A DNA stretch of 64,000 bases, taken from NCBI GenBank assembly GCA_038226395.1, contig JBBRQM010000004.1, positions 5,243-69,242 on the forward strand, given 5' to 3'. This DNA is from Pyrinomonadales bacterium. Its GTDB lineage: Bacteria > Acidobacteriota > Blastocatellia > Pyrinomonadales > Pyrinomonadaceae. Shown one piece after another: positions 2,509-20,557 of this stretch. The notes below the pieces were generated by a model. It made no database searches and had not been told where the DNA came from. It was given only the letters and a program-made list of their open reading frames with translations. Both the position numbers and the translations under genes were made by a program. Numbering within the stretch: the first letter of the stretch is position 1; every line of letters begins with the position of its first letter.

Positions 2509-5500
2509 ATGTCTGACGAGAAACTTAATAAAAAGCCAACTAACCGCAAAGGCCCTGTATTTTTGGATACAAAAGGGCGGCGTGGGTATTTCACTACATA
2601 CGGCGGGATCGCCTTTGCTACCGGCGTGACGGTGCTGCTTGGCCTTTTTGTCGTCAGCGTGTTGATCAATCCGTTTCTGCCGCAGATCAAATTGAAATCC
2701 ATCTCAGTGCCTCCTCAGCAGACTGATCTGCCCGGTCATGTACCCGTTTTGCCAATTCCCGTTTTGCCAACTCTAAAAAAAACCGATCCTATTCTTAAGG
2801 AAACAACCGATAAGGCAAAATCCGAGCAAAAAAAGCGTGAAGATGCCCGCAATCAGGCTCTCATGATCAGAGAATCGAGGATCGGTGCCATTACAGCGCC
2901 GACGCCGACAAACGGGCGACCGTTATCAATCGGTTTTTTTGTTAATTGGGACGATTCGAGCCTGGCCTCGTTAAAACATAATATTCAAGGCATGGACTGG
3001 CTTGTGCCGGAATGGATACGGCTCTCTGGCGACGCCAAAAACCCGCTCGTTTTGGATATTGATGACGACGCGCTGGATCTTATCAGCACGCAAAAGCCAA
3101 CCATGCCGGTGCTGCCTCTGCTGCAAAACTATAAGAATGAAAAGTGGAATTCTGAGATATTAGTTAATTCGATATCGACGCCGGATACCCGACGACAATT
3201 GATCAATTCTCTTTTGGAGACGATCGATAAGTATAAATTTGGCGGCCTCACGATCGATATCGAAGAAGTTCCGGAAAGCTCGCAAATGAACCTGTTAAAG
3301 TTTATGCAGGAGCTGCATGCCGAATTTCAGACCCGCAAACTTGTCCTGGCACAAGCTGTTCCCTTCGATAATCCCGACTGGAACTATGTCGCTTATTCAA
3401 ACGTTACTGATTATTTGATGCTGATGGCCTACGACCAGCACTGGTCAACCGGAGAATCCGGCCCTATCGCCAGCCAGGATTGGTATGACGCGATCCTGAA
3501 AAAGCGGATGGCCGAACTTTCGCCCTCAAAGACCATAATTTGTTTTGGTAATTATGGTTACAATTGGGCCAATGATAAATCGGAGGGCGAAACCGTTACA
3601 TTTCAGGATGCCCTTGTTATTGCCAAGGATTCTCTGGAAAGCCCTGCGGCCATAAAATTTGACCCGGCTTCGAAAAATCCATTTTTCACATACGAGGAGG
3701 ATGATGGCAAAAAGCACTCGGTTTGGTTTCTCGACGCTGTCACGGCCTTTAATCAACTCCAGAGCGCCAAACCATACAATGTTGCCGGGTTTGCGCTATG
3801 GCGTCTTGGCAGCGAAGACCCGTCTTTATGGAGCGTATTCGGCTCTCAGGATCGCTCCGTTTCGGCCGGCGATCTGCAAACTATAAAATACGGTTACGAC
3901 GTAGATTTTGTAGGCACCGGCGAGATATTACAGGTGGTCGCCCAGCCGCAGGACGGAATGCGTGACCTGACACTTGCAGACAATGGCAGCGTCACGGATC
4001 AGGTATATCGTCAAATACCCTCGTCATACGTGATACAGAGAACGGGCGACAAGGTGGGCAAGATAGTGCTGACCTTCGATGACGGCCCCGATCCGGTGTG
4101 GACACCGAAGATTCTCGACATCTTGAAACAAGAGCACGTAAAAGCGGCATTTTTTATAGTCGGAGAAAACGGTCAGGCAAACCCTGAGATCGTTAAACGG
4201 ATTGTTACGGACGGGCATGAGATAGGCAACCACTCGTTTACGCATCCCAATCTCGGGGAAGTGCCCCGCCAGATAACGGACTTGGAGCTGAACGCTACCC
4301 AGCGTCTGATCGAATCGCTCACCGGGCGTTCGACTCGTCTTTTCCGGGCGCCGTATTTTGGTGACGCCGAGCCGCGCACCCCGGACGAAGTAAATCCGAC
4401 CGTGCAGGCACAAAATCTCGGATATATCTCGGTCGGACTGCATCTCGATCCTGACGATTGGAAATTAAAGAACGAGGACGGCTCGCCCCACTCGGCTGAT
4501 CAGATGGTGAGTGACATACTCACACAGGTAGCTATCACGACGCCGGAAGAGCGCGGCAATATCGTGTTGCTGCATGACAGCGGAGGCGATCGCTCGGCGA
4601 CGATTGAGGCATTGCCAAAGATTATTCATGAGTTACGTTCCCGTGGCTACGCATTCACATCAATCGCCGATCTCGCCAATATGACACCCGAACAGGCGAT
4701 GCCGCCGGTGTCCGAGGACCGGTCGTTTTACACGCGGACTGATTCTTGGGTTTTCTACGGTATCTCGATCCTGGGTTGGCTAATGCGCTGGCTTTTTCTG
4801 ATCGGCATTGTTCTGGGACTTGGCCGTATGGCAGTAATCGGCGTTTTGGCATTTACCCAATATGTGCGATCGCGGCGGCGCGAAGAGGAGCATTTTGGCG
4901 AAGGTTTCGAGCCGCTGGTGTCGGTCGTTGTTCCGGCGTTTAACGAGGAACGCGTAATCGTCCGCACGATTGAGAGCCTGCTGGCGTCAGACTATGCCAA
5001 ATTTGAGATCATCGTCGTCGATGACGGCTCAACCGACGACACACTGAACACAATTAAAATGCGATTTGCTGACGAAGAGCGCATATCGATCTACCACAAA
5101 GAAAACGGCGGCAAGGCCGAGGCATTAAATTTGGGCTGCCTAAAGGCGAACGGCTCGATCATCATCGCCCTCGACGCCGATACGATGTTTACCAGGCAGA
5201 CGATCTCGGCGCTTGCTCACCGTTTTGCCGACGAGCATATCGGAGCCATAGCCGGCAACGCCAAAGTCGGTAACCGGATCAATATTGTTACAAAATGGCA
5301 GGCGCTCGAATATGTGACATCGCAAAATTTTGATCGTCGAGCTTTCGCCTCGCTCAACTGCATAACGGTCGTTCCCGGCTCGGTCGGAGCTTGGCGGCGG
5401 TCTGTGCTCGAAGAGGCCGGCGGATTCTCGTCCGATACGCTTGCCGAGGATCAGGATCTGACGATCCAGGTTCGTAAACTTGGCTATAAGATAGGCTATG

Positions 5501-14038: not shown

Positions 14039-16336
14039 ATGAAAATTCTAACCATCGCATTCGCGTTTTGCATCGTCCTGTCGTCAATCAACATGGCTCA
14101 GACTGCTGAGATCAACAGCATTCCCAAGCCTCGCTCAGTGAGGTCCTTCGATGGAGAGAGATTTACTCTAAGTCGTAGAACCAAGATCGTCGCAAGTAGT
14201 AGCGGAGCTCTCAGGATCGCGGGAGTCTTGAACGAATTCCTTCTTAGGAGATATGGTTTTAAGATTAAAATTACTGACAAACCGCAAGGCAATAACGCCG
14301 TCTTGATCGTGATCACACCCGGTGGATGGCCGTATTCGAACCCTGAAGGTTATGGGTTAAGAATCCATGCGAACACGATAGGCCTTATAAACAGTGAGCG
14401 AGGTTCATTCAATGCGCTTCAGACGCTGTTTCAGATCCTCCCTCTCGAATCCAAAAAAGAGATAAGTATTCCCGCTCTCGAGATATTCGATGCACCGCGC
14501 TTCCCATACCGCGGGATGCACCTCGATGTTGGGCGGCATTTTATGCCGGTCGAGTTTGTTAAAAAGTACATCGACCTGATGTCCCAGTACAAATTCAACT
14601 ACTTTCACTGGCACCTGACCGAGGACCAGGGCTGGCGGATCGAGATCAAGAAGTATCCAAAATTGACCGAGATCGGCTCAAAACGGCCCGAGACCGTAAA
14701 GGACAAAAATCTCCAGCCATATATCGGCGACGGAGTGCCGCATGAGGGTTTTTATACGCAGGAACAGATCAGGGATGTCGTTGCTTATGCCAAAGCTCGA
14801 TATATCACCGTGATCCCTGAGATCGAGCTTCCGGGCCATTCATCATCGGCATTGGCCGCTTATCCTGAGCTTGGCTGCAAGGCGGATTACAAATACAAGG
14901 TGCAGACGACGTGGGGCATTTTTAAGGATGTCTATTGCCCGACCGAGAAGACGTTCGGCTTTCTCGAAGACGTTTTGACCGAAGTGATCGGCCTCTTTCC
15001 CGATTCGCCCTACATCCATATCGGCGGCGACGAAGTGCTCAAAGATCAGTGGAAAGAGTCACCCGAAGTTGCCAGCCTAATGGCTCGCGAAAACCTCAAG
15101 GACGTTAACGAGGTCCAAAGCTACTTCGTCCGCCGGATGGAAAAGTTTATTAACTCAAAGGGCAAGAAGATAATCGGATGGGACGAGATACTCGAGGGCG
15201 GCCTCGCTCCAAATGCGACCGTTATGTCTTGGCGCGGCATCAAAGGCGGAATCGCGGCCGCTAAAGAGCATCACGATGTAATAATGACGCCGACCGATTA
15301 CGTCTATTTTGACTACGGCCAGGGCGACCCGGCCACCGAGCCACTGAATATCGGCGGCTATCTCCCGCTCGAAAAAGTTTATTCATTTGACCCGGTTCCG
15401 AAAGAGCTAAACGCGGATGAGGCCAAATATATCATCGGCGGCCAGGGCAACGTCTGGACAGAATATCTGCCGACGCCCGCTTCGGTCGAATACATGGCCT
15501 TCCCGCGAATGCTCGCTTTGTCCGAGGTGCTGTGGTCAACGCCCGAGAATAAGAATTATGCTGATTTTACCCGGCGGCTTGGCCGCCAGTTTGCCCGTCT
15601 CGATCAACAAAATGTTAATTATCGAATACCTGAGCCTATAGGCCTGCGAGATGCCGTCCTTGGCAAAACCGAAGCCCCGATCCTCGCGCTAAATTCCGTC
15701 GTGCCGGACTCAAAAATTTATTTCTCCTACGATGGTCAGATACCTACGACTAAATCGTCTTTGTATGCACGTCCGCTGGGCCTGTTTAGCGAGCCTGCCA
15801 CGCCGAGGATCGATGTAAAAACCATAGTCGTACTGCCAAATGGCCGCACAAGTTCGATCTATACGGCGACCTATTTAAGGCAGCTGTGGCACGGGCCGGA
15901 ACCAGACCTCAAGGAAAAACGAGCCGGCGTTACCTACTCGATTGTCATACCCGCAAGCGGCAATTCACCCGATCCGATCATTACGAGTGGCGAGACAAAA
16001 TCGATGGGGCTTGCTCAATTTGCCAAAACAACCGATCTGAAAAAACCTTTCGGAGCGAGTTTCGATGGGTATTTCAACGCCCCGGTCGATGCGATCTATG
16101 AGTTTCAGATCGAATCGACCTGGGACGCTGATCTCTTTATTGGCGGTGAAAAATTGGTCGGCCAACTCGGCACCAAAGACCGTGCGATCCACTCTGAGGT
16201 TTTGCCGCTCAGGGCCGGGTTGCACAAGATCGGTATGCGATACAATAATCAGGGCGGCGAGCCGTTTTTCCGCGTCCGCTGGGCGATCAAGGGGCAGAAT
16301 TGGCACAATATCGGCGGCGGCGAGCTGATGCATTGA
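14039..16336 (+). CDS. GH20 beta-N-acetylhexosaminidase with C-terminal PA14-like domain
   Basis: HWHLTEDQGWRIEIKKYP and IHIGGDE are GH20 catalytic blocks. Signal peptide runs from MKILTIAF. The C-terminal segment YFNAPVDAIYEFQIESTWDADLFIGGEKL resembles PA14. The upstream in-frame start at 13979 lies in the hairpin and is less likely. Confidence 0.85.
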   Translation: MKILTIAFAFCIVLSSINMAQTAEINSIPKPRSVRSFDGERFTLSRRTKIVASSSGALRIAGVLNEFLLRRYGFKIKITDKPQGNNAVLIVITPGGWPYSNPEGYGLRIHANTIGLINSERGSFNALQTLFQILPLESKKEISIPALEIFDAPRFPYRGMHLDVGRHFMPVEFVKKYIDLMSQYKFNYFHWHLTEDQGWRIEIKKYPKLTEIGSKRPETVKDKNLQPYIGDGVPHEGFYTQEQIRDVVAYAKARYITVIPEIELPGHSSSALAAYPELGCKADYKYKVQTTWGIFKDVYCPTEKTFGFLEDVLTEVIGLFPDSPYIHIGGDEVLKDQWKESPEVASLMARENLKDVNEVQSYFVRRMEKFINSKGKKIIGWDEILEGGLAPNATVMSWRGIKGGIAAAKEHHDVIMTPTDYVYFDYGQGDPATEPLNIGGYLPLEKVYSFDPVPKELNADEAKYIIGGQGNVWTEYLPTPASVEYMAFPRMLALSEVLWSTPENKNYADFTRRLGRQFARLDQQNVNYRIPEPIGLRDAVLGKTEAPILALNSVVPDSKIYFSYDGQIPTTKSSLYARPLGLFSEPATPRIDVKTIVVLPNGRTSSIYTATYLRQLWHGPEPDLKEKRAGVTYSIVIPASGNSPDPIITSGETKSMGLAQFAKTTDLKKPFGASFDGYFNAPVDAIYEFQIESTWDADLFIGGEKLVGQLGTKDRAIHSEVLPLRAGLHKIGMRYNNQGGEPFFRVRWAIKGQNWHNIGGGELMH

Positions 16337-16403
16337 ATTAATTAGGTTGATTAGCAAAAAACAGGTCCATGCTGTAATAGTTTGTATTACAACCATTCCG
16401 TTC

Positions 16404-16433
16404 TTGACCTACTGACTGTCGGCGAATTATCAT
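16404..16433 (+). promoter_or_regulatory. candidate tRNA promoter (TTGACC, 18 nt, TATCAT)
   Basis: Hexamers at 16404-16409 and 16428-16433, about 12 nt before the tRNA 5' end. Confidence 0.5.
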
Positions 16434-16445
16434 CATAAATTCGCT

Positions 16446-16533
16446 GCCGGAGTGGCGAAATTGGTATACGCACCAGACTCAAAATCTGGCGGGCTTAACG
16501 CTCATGTCGGTTCGAGTCCGACCTCCGGTACCA
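16446..16533 (+). tRNA. tRNA-Leu (anticodon CAA), CCA encoded
   Basis: Hand-folded. Acceptor GCCGGAG/CTCCGGT, 3-bp D stem, anticodon stem CCAGA/TCTGG with loop CTCAAAA, long variable arm, T arm GTCGG-TTCGAGT-CCGAC, discriminator A, then CCA. Confidence 0.9.
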
Positions 16534-16542
16534 AAAATAATA

Positions 16543-16585
16543 GCGGCTTAGGATCAATGATGACCCCGAGCCGCATTTTTGTTTT
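16543..16585 (+). terminator. possible terminator after the tRNA
   Basis: GCGGCT (16543-16548) pairs with AGCCGC (16569-16574), followed by ATTTTTGTTTT. The loop is long (about 20 nt), so confidence is moderate. Confidence 0.45.
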
Positions 16586-16600
16586 AGTTGAACCGGGCGT

Positions 16601-17824
16601 TTACTGACGCCGGTATGTGATGCTCTGGCCATTGTCGGTGCGGACGGTGCGAATGCCATTTCCGCTGCGGATAACATTAGCCGTGGCGCCGGCAATCGTC
16701 AGAGTCGTCCCATACAGTGTTCCATAGACGGGGCCGCCGCCCATATCAACGGTTACCTGGCCGTCATTGGCGACGGTAAGATAGATCGTGCCGCCATTCT
16801 CCGGATTATTAGCTGCAAACGATCCGACCGCCCAATTGACGGGCACGCCTCCGTTACGGCCGCCATTCCCGCCGCCGTTATTGTTATTCCAAACGGTGCG
16901 TGAGTAATTGATAACCTCTCCGTTATCGTTGCGAGTGGTGCGGATGCCGTTGCCATAGCGGGTAATGCGCGAAGATGCACCATTGAGTTGGATCGAATTG
17001 CGGTAATACGTGCCGTAGTTGCTGTTGCCATTGATTAGCGCCGTCACCTGGCCGTTTGACTCGAGTGACAGAGTGATCTGCGACCCGTCCTGCGCGGTGC
17101 CGTAAAATGTGCCCTGTGCCCAGCTTGGCGGCGAGCTCATATTTCCGCTGCCGTTCCAGCCGCCTCCGCCGTTGCCGCCGCCGGAATTGACGCGTAAATA
17201 GTCTGTCGTCTGGCCGCTGTTTCGGTTATAAATCCGAATTCCGTTACCGTTTCTGGTTAAGGTCGAGGTTTCGCCGTTTAGATTGATCGATCCGCGATTA
17301 TACGTCCCGTAATTTGTCAGGCCAAAGTTGTGAAACGTCACCTGTCCGTTTGAGGCGATCGTCATCCTGACATATGACTCGTTGGACGAGTAAAATGAGC
17401 CGACAGCCCAACTCGGCGGTGAGCTCATATTGCCGTTGCCGTTCCAGCCGCCATCGTTGCCGTTGTTATTGTTATTCCATCCATTTCGCGTATAGTTGAT
17501 GACCTCGCCGTTATCGTTGCGGGTCGTGCGTATGCCGTTGCCGTTACGGGTAACGCGTGAATACGCTCCGTTGAGTTGAATCGAATTGCGATAATATGTG
17601 CCGTAGTTGCTGTTGCCATTGATCAGCGCTGTCACCTCGCCGTTTGAATCGAGTGTCAGAGTGATCTGCGAACCGTCCGGCGCGGTGCCGTAAAACGTGC
17701 CTTGGGCCCAACTCGGCGGCGAGCTTCTTCGTCCCTGTGCGTGTGTGGCTATCGGAATCGCGACAACCATCATCGCGAGGCAAAATACCGTCAAAATACC
17801 TACATAAAATTTTTTGTTTTTCAT
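16601..17824 (-). CDS. secreted repeat protein, four ~95-aa modules in A-B-A-B order, unknown function
   Basis: Signal peptide MKNKKFYVGILTVFCLAMMVVAIPIATHAQ. Each module starts SSPPSWA[QV]G[TS]FY and ends NGNGIR...Y. Modules are separated by Asn/Gly-rich linkers. GGGGGA SD before the ATG. Confidence 0.75.
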   Translation of the reverse strand: MKNKKFYVGILTVFCLAMMVVAIPIATHAQGRRSSPPSWAQGTFYGTAPDGSQITLTLDSNGEVTALINGNSNYGTYYRNSIQLNGAYSRVTRNGNGIRTTRNDNGEVINYTRNGWNNNNNGNDGGWNGNGNMSSPPSWAVGSFYSSNESYVRMTIASNGQVTFHNFGLTNYGTYNRGSINLNGETSTLTRNGNGIRIYNRNSGQTTDYLRVNSGGGNGGGGWNGSGNMSSPPSWAQGTFYGTAQDGSQITLSLESNGQVTALINGNSNYGTYYRNSIQLNGASSRITRYGNGIRTTRNDNGEVINYSRTVWNNNNGGGNGGRNGGVPVNWAVGSFAANNPENGGTIYLTVANDGQVTVDMGGGPVYGTLYGTTLTIAGATANVIRSGNGIRTVRTDNGQSITYRRQ

Positions 17825-18078
17825 ATCGTCCCCCTGTTGATTTTAATGGCTCTAGGCCACTTGCAACTTTTGATGAAAATTTACCGTCCGGGTCTGCCTG
17901 TAATCTATTGATCAGAAATCTTGGCCGGTCCTATTCGAATAAGGTCTTGTCGGTCTGATTATATTGCACAGCCCGTATTGTAACAACCGCTTTTACAAAC
18001 CATTATTGAAAATGAGCAAGAAATTACTGGCAATTTTATAATATTTTGTGGCATACTGCCTCTACAGGGGGTGATATT

Positions 18079-18114
18079 ATGATAAATAATTCAAACGAGG
18101 TAATCAGAAACTAG
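18079..18114 (+). promoter_or_regulatory. candidate leader mini-ORF (MINNSNEVIRN*) with strong SD
   Basis: GGGGGTGA at 18067-18074 and ATG at 18079. Of 11 codons, 4 are Asn. TATAAT at 18037-18042 lies upstream and a terminator lies downstream. Confidence 0.35.
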
Positions 18115-18152
18115 ACGGATCGTTTTTAACAGAATACGAACCGCTATTAACA

Positions 18153-18187
18153 AACGGCGCACTTTTTCGAGTGCGCCGTTTTATTTT
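18153..18187 (+). terminator. rho-independent terminator 28 nt upstream of queA
   Basis: AACGGCGCAC (18153-18162) pairs perfectly with GTGCGCCGTT (18171-18180), with an 8-nt loop and then TTATTTT. Confidence 0.75.
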
Positions 18188-18214
18188 ACGCTGCAAAATC
18201 TTCAAAATAACGAC

Positions 18215-19243
18215 ATGCTGATCTCCGATTTTGATTACAATCTGCCTGACGAACTTATAGCTCAAACGCCGCTGGCGAGCCGGGATGCTTCACGAATGCT
18301 GGTTGTCGATCGTGGCACAGGAGCTTTTAAAGACGAGGTATTTCTTAATCTTCCACATTTCCTTCGTCCGGATGATGTCATCGTCCTGAATAACACAAAG
18401 GTCTTTCCGGCACGGCTTTTTGGCAATGTGGAAACCGGTGCGAATGTTGAGATCTTTCTAATACGGGAAACAATGGAAAGCGTTTGGGAAGCACTCGCCC
18501 GTCCCATGAAACGTTTGAAACCCGGCAAGAAGATACTTTTTGGGGATAAATTGGCGGCGACAGTTATCGAAATACGAGATGGGAAAGTATTTTTGCGTTT
18601 TGAAACTACAGATGATCTGGATCAAATTCTTGATAAGATCGGACGGACTCCGCTGCCGCCATATATAAAAAGGATAACCACAGAGATCGACGCCGACCGC
18701 GAGCGTTACCAAACCATCTTTGCAAAAAACCGCGGAGCAATAGCGGCGCCGACCGCAGGGTTGCATTTTACACCAGAGATTATCGAAGCGATCAAAAACA
18801 TCGCTGTTATCGTCACCGAAATTACACTTCACGTGGGTTACGGAACATTTGAGCCAATCCGCGTCGATGACCTTGCAAATCATACAGTCTCGGCGGAAAG
18901 TTATGAGATCAGCGCCGAAACCGCCCTGATCCTCAATGACGCCAAAGCCGCCGGCCGCCGAATCGTCGCCATCGGTACGACTACCACCAGAGCATTGGAG
19001 GCCACGGTCTCAAAATTTGGGCGTTTTGTCGCGGGTTCTTATTCGGCTGACCTGACCATAATTCCAGGTTATACATTCAAGGGTGTCGATGCGCTGCTGA
19101 CAAATTTTCATCTACCACAAAGTTCTCTGCTTGTTTTGACTTCCGTCTTTGGCGGCCACCAACTTATAATGAGAGCTTACCAACACGCTGTAGAAGCTAA
19201 ATACCGTTTTTACAGTTACGGCGATTGTATGTTGATAGTTTAG
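18215..19243 (+). CDS. queA: S-adenosylmethionine:tRNA ribosyltransferase-isomerase
   Basis: 342 aa. FDYNLPDELIAQTPL, GRTPLPPYIKR and SYGDCMLI are QueA hallmarks. Confidence 0.95.
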   Translation: MLISDFDYNLPDELIAQTPLASRDASRMLVVDRGTGAFKDEVFLNLPHFLRPDDVIVLNNTKVFPARLFGNVETGANVEIFLIRETMESVWEALARPMKRLKPGKKILFGDKLAATVIEIRDGKVFLRFETTDDLDQILDKIGRTPLPPYIKRITTEIDADRERYQTIFAKNRGAIAAPTAGLHFTPEIIEAIKNIAVIVTEITLHVGYGTFEPIRVDDLANHTVSAESYEISAETALILNDAKAAGRRIVAIGTTTTRALEATVSKFGRFVAGSYSADLTIIPGYTFKGVDALLTNFHLPQSSLLVLTSVFGGHQLIMRAYQHAVEAKYRFYSYGDCMLIV

Positions 19244-19244
19244 C

Positions 19245-19318
19245 GAGTTAACAGAGTTGCTGAGTTAGCTGAGTTGTGGTTTTCCTCAACTCTGAAAACT
19301 CCGCAACTCGGCAAACTC
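19245..19318. repeat. word-hairpin element (GAGTTnnn words / CAACTC words)
   Basis: GAGTTAACAGAGTTGCTGAGTTAGCTGAGTTG faces CAACTCTGAAAACTCCGCAACTCGGCAAACTC, directly after the queA stop. Confidence 0.7.
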
Positions 19319-19327
19319 AAAACTTTT

Positions 19328-19861
19328 ATGGCTGTTTTAGAAACAATTCGTAATTTTTTTGTTCCGGCTTTTCCAGTCGAGCCTGAGGTGATCGTCCCGG
19401 CGCCGCCGTGTGTTTACGATATTCGTTTGTTGACAAGCGATCATTTGGCCGACGTCCTGCAGCTAAATGTCAGATGTTTTCGCAATGGGGATAACTATAC
19501 AAAACATACTTTTTCTTATCTTTTGAACGAGCCTCTAACGCTCAGCTATCGCGTCGTCACTCAAAAGGACGAGATCGTCGGATTTGCCTTTGTAATGGCT
19601 AATGAAAAAAACTCCGCTCATTTGACGACTATCGGCGTCGCCCCCGAGCACCGGCGTCGCGGAATCGCCGTACGGCTGCTCGACCACATCGAGCAGGCGT
19701 TGATGAACCGGAAGATTGGAACTGTGCTTCTCGAGGTCCGTGTAGGCAACACCGAGGCTCAAACGCTTTACCGCAAGTCCGGTTATACGGTGGTTCAACG
19801 GATTGGCAAGTATTACACCAATGGCGAAGACTGTTTTCTGATGATGAAGGCTCTTAATTAG
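19328..19861 (+). CDS. GNAT N-acetyltransferase, RimI-like
   Basis: LTTIGVAPEHRRRGIAVRLL is the acetyl-CoA-binding motif. ATG at 19328 is preferred over the GTG at 19274, which lies inside the hairpin. Confidence 0.75.
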   Translation: MAVLETIRNFFVPAFPVEPEVIVPAPPCVYDIRLLTSDHLADVLQLNVRCFRNGDNYTKHTFSYLLNEPLTLSYRVVTQKDEIVGFAFVMANEKNSAHLTTIGVAPEHRRRGIAVRLLDHIEQALMNRKIGTVLLEVRVGNTEAQTLYRKSGYTVVQRIGKYYTNGEDCFLMMKALN

Positions 19862-19936
19862 TTCAAAGTCCAAGGTTCAAAGTTCAAGGTTGGGCGTTTG
19901 AACCAGACTTTGAACTTTGAACATTAAACTTTGAAC
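19862..19936. repeat. word-hairpin element (GTTCAAAG words / CTTTGAAC words)
   Basis: TTCAAAGTCCAAGGTTCAAAGTTCAAGGT faces ACTTTGAACTTTGAACATTAAACTTTGAAC, between the rimI-like stop and the thiE start. Confidence 0.75.
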
Positions 19937-20557
19937 TATTCACTTCCCAAAATCTATCCGATCACTGACTCCAGTATTTCCGGTATTTCACACGTCGCGC
20001 AGGTAGAGCGGCTCATTGCGGGTGGCGCTCGTTTAATCCAGCTTCGCGAAAAACACGCGCCGTCAGATGCATTTTATAAATCCGCTCAAGCTGCAATGCT
20101 CATCACCCGTGAAAATGGCGTCAGGATTATCATCAATGACCGGGTGGACATCGCCTTGGCAGTCAAAGCCGACGGCATTCACCTCGGACAAGACGACCTT
20201 CCTCCCGAAAATGCACGCAGGATCCTCGGCGACGATGCTGTCATTGGATTTTCGACCCATTCAATCGAACAGGCCCGGCATGCGATATCTATGCCGGTCA
20301 ATTACATCGCCATCGGCCCCCTATTCCCGACAAAAACAAAGGAAAATCCAGACGAAACTATTGGCATCGAGGGGCTGCGGCGGGTGCGTGATTCGATAGG
20401 AGATTTTCCGCTTGTTGCCATCGGCGGCATTACTATCGACAACATCGCTTCAGTTTTTGAGGCAGGCGCAGGTTGCGCCGCGATGATTGGAGAGTTGCTT
20501 TCAGAGCCAGATGCGATCAGCGAAAAGACAAGAGAGTTTCTAACATTCTGTCAATGA
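19931..20557 (+). CDS. thiE: thiamine-phosphate synthase
   Basis: IYPITDS, LIQLREK and IINDRVDIALAVKADGIHLGQDDL are ThiE blocks. TTG start per the ORF track. Confidence 0.9.
   Translation: MNYSLPKIYPITDSSISGISHVAQVERLIAGGARLIQLREKHAPSDAFYKSAQAAMLITRENGVRIIINDRVDIALAVKADGIHLGQDDLPPENARRILGDDAVIGFSTHSIEQARHAISMPVNYIAIGPLFPTKTKENPDETIGIEGLRRVRDSIGDFPLVAIGGITIDNIASVFEAGAGCAAMIGELLSEPDAISEKTREFLTFCQ

Follow-up and report, generated by a model that had tools for sequence, protein, structure and literature searches.

Between the genes for tRNA-Leu(CAA) and QueA, the 64-kb stretch of DNA analyzed here (the window) carries a compact unit that recurs with the same layout in about 100 metagenomic loci and three GTDB genomes, all of them Pyrinomonadaceae-like. 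The unit is made up of a predicted promoter with an extended -10 element, a 9-nt Shine-Dalgarno (SD) sequence, an 11-codon open reading frame (ORF) of the form M-I-N-N-x-T-E-V-x-x-x, a hairpin that abuts the stop codon, and a strong terminator with a covarying stem. We put at about one in two the probability that this element is a lineage-specific, self-contained and translated micro-gene, the terminator of which would also act as a fixed leaky gate wherever queA is the adjacent gene. A full-text literature search retrieved no description of such an element, and the conserved micro-gene is apparently undescribed.

Anatomy of the locus

The features of the element and its surroundings in the window are the following.

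16446-16533, + strand: tRNA-Leu(CAA), identified by ARAGORN and Rfam; the conserved upstream partner of the element
16601-17824, - strand: secreted repeat-protein gene (rep), with no confident Pfam match, between tRNA-Leu(CAA) and the element
18008-18063, + strand: putative promoter block, with an A-rich stretch, a -35-like CTGGCAA (18027-18033), TG (18049-18050) and the -10 hexamer CATACT (18052-18057)
18037-18042, + strand: TATAAT seen by sequence inspection, inside the promoter spacer
18064-18078, + strand: predicted transcription start (about 18064-18066, from the position of the -10 hexamer) and 13-15-nt 5' UTR with the SD GGGGGTGAT
18067-18074, + strand: SD GGGGGTGA; the longer form GGGGGTGAT reaches 18075 and offers nine possible anti-SD pairs
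18079-18114, + strand: 11-codon ORF MINNSNEVIRN, from ATG (18079) to TAG (18112-18114), with the Asn codons AAT AAT AAC AAC
18097-18101, + strand: SD-like GAGGT inside the ORF (codons 7-8), 10 nt 5' of the stop codon
18116-18123 / 18136-18143, + strand: hairpin 1, CGGATCGT / ACGAACCG, starting 2 nt past the stop, with 7/8 pairs and an A.A mismatch (18119/18140)
18152-18187, + strand: intrinsic terminator, with a 12-13-bp stem, a 6-nt loop and a TATTTT tail ending at 18187
18215-19243, + strand: queA, S-adenosylmethionine:tRNA ribosyltransferase-isomerase (Pfam PF02547, E = 2.4e-126), with its ATG 27 nt past the T-tract and no SD

Most of this anatomy had been proposed in a first-pass annotation of the 390-nt intergenic region. 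The SD, the ORF with its four Asn codons, the hairpin beyond the stop, the perfect 10-bp stem just before queA and an upstream gene on the opposite strand were all found where that annotation had placed them. The stem (18153-18162 / 18171-18180) forms the core of the terminator and extends to 12-13 pairs (18152-18163 / 18170-18181). The TATAAT noted there is also present, but relatives do not conserve it, and the hexamer that they do conserve is the extended -10 downstream of it. Pfam assigned the neighboring genes to QueA, a GNAT and ThiE. A 133-nt stretch across the element folds with z = -5.96 relative to shuffles, and its terminator is the sole strict intrinsic terminator on the + strand of the window (three on both strands together).

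Recurrence of the unit among relatives

Of 80 related queA loci searched for similarity to the intergenic region, only three gave matches (L002, L010, and L066). When these were aligned with the window, the block from the SD to codon 8 proved invariant, and all four sequences encode an 11-codon ORF that stops at the same place. The nearest GTDB QueA proteins belong to Pyrinomonadaceae (Acidobacteriota, Blastocatellia) MAGs and share at most about 66% identity, while the sequence of the window itself was found in sediment and soil metagenomes. Metagenome contigs were scanned with the pattern GGGGTGATATTATG-N15-GAGGT, in which 19 positions are fixed and the 15 internal ones (codons 2-6) are free. 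In about 100 of the 104 loci retrieved, the ORF reads M-I-N-N-x-T-E-V-x-x-x and stops at codon 12; the SD-ATG stretch and GAGGT of this set are fixed by the pattern, and its members are related, not phylogenetically independent. Conservation of GAGGT in this set is accordingly not an independent measure; the motif is also found in the three GTDB relatives, which were retrieved by similarity.

These comparisons agree with the suggestion of the first-pass annotation that the mini-ORF and terminator form a unit tied to queA, since both the unit and its linkage to queA are conserved among relatives. Divergent or second copies were sought with nhmmer profiles and a peptide regular expression in the 80 GTDB queA loci, all loci of the family and the window, and the same three genomes were the only GTDB carriers obtained. 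The element occurs once per locus, including the window, and a search of viral contigs gave no match. Its absence from 77 of the 80 related GTDB queA loci indicates that it is dispensable.

At the level of strains, purifying selection on positions 18008-18125 is apparent from the sequences: a strain with about 95% identity (run X3) has no changes there, as opposed to 19 substitutions and 3 indels in 17906-18007.

Selection on the 11-codon reading frame

To judge from the family alignment, the reading frame is under selection. Among 74 unique sequences, none has an internal stop in frame 0, whereas 72 and 74 of them do in the other two frames. The same holds within the variable codons 8-11, where stops are absent from frame 0 (0/74) and occur in 46 and 45 of the 74 sequences in the alternative frames. 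The ORF ends at codon 12 in 73/74 sequences with interchangeable stops (TAG in 41, TAA in 27, TGA in 5), and the 9-nt ORF tails come in 54 distinct forms. Codon 6 (ACA/ACT/ACC) and codon 8 (GTA/GTG/GTT) differ among members in their wobble position. The sequences thus combine what is expected of a small protein-coding ORF: an SD at suitable spacing, an initiation codon, and a frame that stays open over a constant length and closes with exchangeable stops. The predicted product is a hydrophilic peptide of 11 residues without obvious activity, and its three C-terminal residues are variable and polar.

The first-pass annotation had listed a chance AT-rich ORF, here lying next to an ordinary terminator, among its alternatives. 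The ORF is indeed short and AT-rich. However, some 100 occurrences with the same frame, length, and stop position, a region that stays unchanged between strains while its flanks change, and a 24-nt core present once in the window and in none of 100 shuffles leave this explanation with a negligible probability, and the recurrence and reading-frame selection refute it.

The 5' part of the ORF behaves differently from its tail. Codon 2 is ATA in 74/78 unique sequences, and codons 3 and 4 are NAU in 76/78 each; these appear as AAT, GAT or CAT and never as AAC, which makes up 45% of Asn codons genome-wide. Changes at codons 3 and 4 are mainly to GAT or CAT. Because the wobble bases of codons 2-4 are frozen, the 5' part is constrained at the nucleotide level as well, and a role of this block in the RNA fits the data equally well as a role of the peptide. 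Inside it, a weak AU hairpin is predicted over the SD and AUG (-4 to -8 kcal/mol), the left arm of which is fixed by the search pattern and hence shows no visible covariation. Such a hairpin around the AUG would explain the frozen wobbles of codons 2-4 equally well as NAU decoding would.

Two further candidates were rejected. An outer 5' stem (CACU/GGUG) has a single variable pair, -16 with +24, which is mismatched in 49/78 sequences. As for stop read-through or frameshifting into the terminator, the zero frame in the window meets a TAA four codons past the stop, and a slippery A-AAA-AAC requires AAA at codon 10, which only a minority of members have.

Promoter, RNA structures, and transcripts

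The conserved -10 element, TG-n-CATACT in the window (18049-18057), takes the forms CATCAT, AATAAT, GATACT, and TACAAT elsewhere in the family. It ends 22-23 nt 5' of the ATG in 71/80 sequences, is TG-extended in 64/80, and is accompanied by an A-rich stretch and a CTGGCAA about 52 nt 5' of the ATG. Positions -15, -14, and -12, which are free in the search pattern, are invariant in 78 unique sequences. At the expected transcription start lies an invariant block, TACAG in the window and CAC(T/A)G in the majority of members, which suggests a 5' UTR of about 15 nt. The earlier argument that an RNA ending at the terminator can start within the intergenic region fits well with a conserved promoter at this place.

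About 90% of the 73 members folded have a hairpin 1 that begins 1-4 nt past the stop; its sequences differ widely (median dG -8.2 kcal/mol, median z -3.3 relative to shuffles). Among close strains, an A>T change at 18140 (run X3) mends its A.A mismatch. An A-rich linker leads from this hairpin to the terminator, whose stem starts 20-45 nt from the end of the ORF. The terminator has the sequence hallmarks of an intrinsic one, with a stem-loop directly followed by a U-tract and compensatory changes in the stem, which affect 12/13 pairs across 56 members. Strain variants at 18161 (A>G, run X3) and 18162 (C>T, run X2) keep G.U pairs. Since an A-run precedes the stem on its 5' side, the terminator looks bidirectional.

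Our search for RNA runs containing the window sequence found none. The runs that do contain relatives were either of unknown type or a shallow soil metatranscriptome. In the latter, contigs with a depth of about 2 cover the element of relatives and reach at least 80-100 nt upstream of the ORF, and none covers queA. These contigs are a weak hint of expression of the element, as they are shallow, extend upstream of the predicted start, leave the ends of the element undefined and could be DNA.

Gene neighborhood and the tRNA-Leu(CAA) transcript

With few exceptions the element has the same neighbors. In 43 unique loci the 3' end of tRNA-Leu(CAA) lies 41-149 nt upstream of the core of the element, and the spacers contain no terminator, so the tRNA transcript must run into the element. 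The window and about 12 other loci differ in that the tRNA is separated from the element, itself unchanged, by a minus-strand rep gene and another terminator. On the downstream side, 86 loci could be classified: queA follows directly in 46 of them (type A, which includes the window), and a convergent rep gene, oriented as in the window, comes first in the other 40 (type B). Different downstream genes occur in a few cases. In a QueA tree, type A, type B and element-free relatives are interleaved over deep branches. Element-free relatives (L007, L020) have either tRNA-Leu, a terminator, and queA in this order, or tRNA-Leu directly followed by queA. The ancestral order therefore looks like tRNA-Leu(CAA) then queA, with the element placed between them in one sub-lineage.

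This arrangement would allow the element to be simply the 3' trailer of tRNA-Leu(CAA). The terminator would end the tRNA transcript, and the ORF would do no more than load ribosomes, for instance to keep Rho off the trailer or to help its stabilization or processing, and the peptide itself would be irrelevant. The terminator-free spacers, the gene order of element-free relatives and the upstream reach of the metatranscriptome contigs all point in this direction. On the other hand, a well-placed internal promoter is conserved, the element is unaltered in those loci where rep and a separate terminator intervene, and neither the conserved residues nor the fixed length of 11 codons would be explained. 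We consider a mere trailer improbable.

A second question concerns how queA is transcribed. In about nine unique type A loci its ATG is only 1-8 nt past the T-tract, which leaves read-through of the terminator as the sole source of queA mRNA. In the window, the 27 nt before queA include a CAAAAT (18203-18208) that may be a weak leaderless promoter. Terminators are weaker in type A than in type B (median -15.3 vs -19.5 kcal/mol, a comparison confounded by phylogeny), which fits a need for leakage into queA. The weaker type A terminators and the short distance to the queA ATG count in favor of a read-through gate, and the stand-alone arrangement in 40 loci over deep QueA branches counts in favor of a self-contained unit.

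Test of the proposed queuosine-sensing leader

The first-pass annotation had speculated that a leader rich in Asn codons reports the queuosine (Q) status of tRNA-Asn to queA. In explicit terms, ribosomes would translate AAU AAU (codons 3-4) and the final NAY codon at a speed that depends on Q in the GUN-anticodon tRNAs, and this speed would set the passage of polymerase past the terminator into queA. The codon content of the family is in line with this: besides the two NAU codons, codon 11 is NAY (Asn, His, Tyr, Asp) in 60/78 sequences, compared with 17% at codons 9-10 and 15.6% genome-wide, and the element adjoins queA in 46 loci, some of which need read-through for queA to be transcribed. 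There is also a precedent, as loss of Q derepresses the his operon via the HisL leader peptide (bioRxiv 10.64898/2026.05.06.723185), which makes a leader peptide of Q-decoded codons sound as a concept.

Folds of 73 members were computed for the free RNA and under a mask that covers the ORF and ends 10, 13 or 16 nt beyond it, which mimics a ribosome at the stop codon. Constrained folding of these members yielded no antiterminator, and the terminator was the minimum-energy fold in 99-100% of them, free or masked. Inspection by eye for pairing of the terminator arms with the 3' arm of hairpin 1 or with the ORF showed nothing consistent; hairpin 1 and the terminator are separate folds that do not compete. 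According to these models, the element lacks the machinery that turns ribosome speed into a termination decision. Moreover, the end of the ORF is too distant from the terminator stem for a ribosome to block it.

Type B loci provide a second test, since the convergent gene in between means that the element is no queA leader in any of the 40. NAU at codon 3, NAU at codon 4, and NAY at codon 11 occur in 100%, 100%, and 79% of type B and in 93%, 95%, and 85% of type A. Being equally strong in type B, these features do not depend on the element being a leader of queA. Nor can NAU decoding be held responsible for the AAT at codons 3-4, given that the same lack of synonymous change is seen at the wobble of codon 2 (ATA) and throughout the 5' block; A>G changes at codons 3-4 also preserve the possible AU hairpin. 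Codon 11 does not obey a strict NAY rule, since its departures from Asn comprise 17 changes in first position and 11 in second position. Taken with the lack of an antiterminator, this makes a leader that senses Q or Asn-tRNA status quite unlikely, and the original proposal is not supported.

In a variant that needs no antiterminator, the mini-ORF would be devoted to sensing how GUN-anticodon tRNAs are modified or charged and would tune queA by other means. Decoding of AAU-AAU and of the stop-adjacent NAY would then set ribosome occupancy and the opening of hairpin 1, and possible routes to queA include how stable the short RNA is, an influence of ribosome-polymerase coupling on termination efficiency, and a trans effect of the RNA or peptide. 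We regard this sensor as highly doubtful; if it were real, it would be the first case of a leader peptide forming the basis of cis- or trans-acting feedback on a tRNA wobble modification. Given the codon content and location, a link between queuosine status and expression is possible, though unlikely.

Small RNA or micro-gene

No relevant match came from Rfam covariance-model searches of 16000-20000 (E-values up to 10), the whole window and 17 related loci (the latter two at the gathering score); all hits of these searches were tRNAs or spurious low-score ones. This includes preQ1 riboswitches, and the first-pass annotation had correctly reported seeing none here.

That annotation had also offered an unrelated sRNA or micro-protein as an alternative, which comes close to the explanation that we now favor. 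Considered separately, a trans-acting small RNA, possibly of dual function, would use its single-stranded 5' block as a seed or protein-binding site and hairpin 1 and the terminator as a scaffold, with translation being secondary. The layout is indeed of the Hfq type: the 5' end is the most conserved part and is followed by a hairpin of variable sequence, an A-rich linker and a terminator with a U-tail, and the element has its own predicted promoter and terminator. In addition, the 5' block is conserved at the nucleotide level, synonymous sites included, the element persists where no cis action on queA is possible, and canonical terminators are otherwise rare in this genome. Against this stands the very strong selection on the reading frame, which is unexpected for a purely non-coding RNA. 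Furthermore, the conserved block is SD-like, not anti-SD-like, and would pair with C/U-rich sequences but not with ribosome-binding sites, and it has no Rfam family. We therefore see a small RNA acting mainly in trans as unlikely.

For the favored translated micro-gene, we propose the following course of events. A sigma-70-type promoter with the extended -10 TG-n-CATACT would start the RNA at about 18064, and in most relatives read-through from the unterminated tRNA-Leu gene may contribute RNA. The leader of 13-15 nt with its 9-nt SD would load ribosomes that make MINNSNEVIRN, a member of the peptide family MINNxTEV plus three variable polar residues, and the ribosome would have to open the stop-abutting hairpin in order to get to the stop codon. 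Polymerase would end at the terminator, with the T-tract to 18187, and leave a short mRNA of about 115-135 nt. Selection would act on the peptide, or on translation over exactly 11 codons as such, and not on a switch between alternative RNA folds. Where queA is adjacent, as in the window, queA and the GNAT gene behind it would be expressed from polymerases that pass the terminator. Where a convergent gene lies in between, the element would be free-standing and its terminator used from both directions.

Four features are left unexplained by this model, namely the frozen wobbles of codons 2-4, the GAGGT 10 nt before the stop, the stop-adjacent hairpin, and the preference for Asn, His or Tyr as the last residue.

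Comparison with known systems

The trpL, hisL, pheL, and thrL attenuators of Enterobacteria resemble the element in their order of parts: a good ribosome-binding site, an ORF of very few codons, an intrinsic terminator and then a same-strand gene (46/86 loci here). They also share an over-representation of codons for a few particular tRNAs, which in our case is confounded by the nucleotide conservation of the 5' block. Unlike them, the element has no mutually exclusive antiterminator and terminator folds, its ORF ends 20-45 nt before the terminator, its two adjacent 'regulatory' codons are near the start of the ORF and not near its end, and it remains intact where no same-strand gene follows.

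The mccA minigene is another tiny ORF (7 codons, 11 here) with a strong ribosome-binding site and a terminator after it, and the peptide of our element, too, often ends in Asn. The mccA terminator produces a short mRNA in abundance but lets the smaller part of the transcripts run on into the enzyme genes behind it. This intergenic terminator of the microcin C operon reportedly folds in a ribosome-dependent manner, in work attributed to Zukher and colleagues (2014, Nucleic Acids Res). Such refolding has no counterpart in our element, which also lacks a nearby MccB-type adenylyltransferase and has a C-terminal Asn in only 43/78 unique sequences, as opposed to the invariant Asn of mccA.

Dual-function sRNAs such as SgrS/SgrT, RNAIII/delta-haemolysin, and SR1/SR1P have ORFs of 26-43 codons and known base-pairing regions. 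The element resembles them as a short RNA with its own promoter and intrinsic terminator that combines a small ORF with conserved RNA sequence, all of it predicted here, but its ORF has 11 codons and fills the conserved region. The preQ1 riboswitches (classes I-III), through which queuosine genes are known to be regulated in cis, often have a terminator behind them. A position upstream of a queuosine-pathway gene is what the element has in common with them; it has no aptamer-like fold, and its conserved region is an ORF. Finally, small ORFs are also found directly downstream of tRNA genes with no terminator between, as in the case of tpr downstream of tyrT in E. coli, which is larger and repeat-derived and is not known to be conserved. 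Our ORF differs from tpr in having its own conserved promoter and a strict length.

To our knowledge, almost no small RNAs or small proteins have been described in Acidobacteriota. With 11 codons, the micro-gene would be close to the smallest size at which conserved free-standing bacterial genes exist, and both gene callers and RNA-family libraries miss it; a raw reading of a soil MAG can thus reveal micro-genes under strong constraint. Roughly one carrier in two appears to depend on read-through of the terminator, downstream of a tRNA gene, for any expression of the tRNA-modification gene queA, which is a simple way to make little enzyme beside much tRNA.

Variable placement of the repeat-protein gene

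Across the window and related loci, the position of the repeat-protein gene varied by genome. In some genomes it preceded the mini-ORF element, in others it followed it, and elsewhere it was missing altogether; its orientation was constant whenever it was present. The interval holding this gene and the mini-ORF element, situated beside a tRNA gene, looks like a rearrangement hot spot. The following features flank or make up the repeat-protein gene in the window:

16541-16585, bidirectional-looking terminator (GCGGCT...AGCCGC, then TTTTTGTTTT) separating tRNA-Leu(CAA) from the 3' end of the repeat-protein gene
16601-17824, minus strand, repeat-protein gene, secreted product with internal repeats (NGNG/SPPSWA units)
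17958-17966, motif GATTATATT, reading TATAAT on the minus strand with TTGTTA 17 nt upstream

Comparison of the repeat protein with Pfam gave no confident match. The motif GATTATATT was found again 35-45 nt upstream of queA, both in type-B loci (those with a convergent repeat-protein gene between the element and queA) and in relatives devoid of the element. This motif probably serves as promoter for the repeat-protein gene on the minus strand and travels with that gene. The start region of the same gene (17824-17845, minus strand), ACAGGGGGACGATATGAAAAAC, is similar to that of the mini-ORF, ACAGGGGGTGATATTATGATAAAT. This likeness may reflect a strong type of ribosome-binding site common in the lineage, or it may be a clue to the origin of the mini-ORF element.

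Terminators and the start of queA

Only three strict intrinsic terminators were present in the whole 64 kb window, counting both strands, and canonical hairpin-plus-U-tract terminators thus seem to be rare in this genome. Among type-A loci, where queA directly follows the terminator of the element, a subgroup shows a CCCnAAAATAnT motif at 6-9 nt ahead of the queA start codon ATG; in the window (region 18194-18214) the motif reads CAAAAT and occupies 18203-18208. A leaderless queA promoter overlapping the terminator tail may have this motif as its -10.

In L066, one of three related GTDB loci carrying the element, queA is fused with the GNAT gene that follows it into a single 530-aa ORF (2980-4572), and the frame shifts near QueA residue 292. 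The locus comes from a long-read MAG, and the fusion probably reflects a misassembly.

Palindromic heptamer repeats

Between the GNAT gene and thiE lies an imperfect palindrome of ~80 nt (19859-19938) made of tandem 7-nt GTTCAAA-like units, from which spurious Rfam matches to plant miRNAs arise. Similar long inverted repeats were found directly upstream of queA in seven related loci (L003, L014, L021, L022, L032, L040, and L044), among which the heptamer unit differs from relative to relative.
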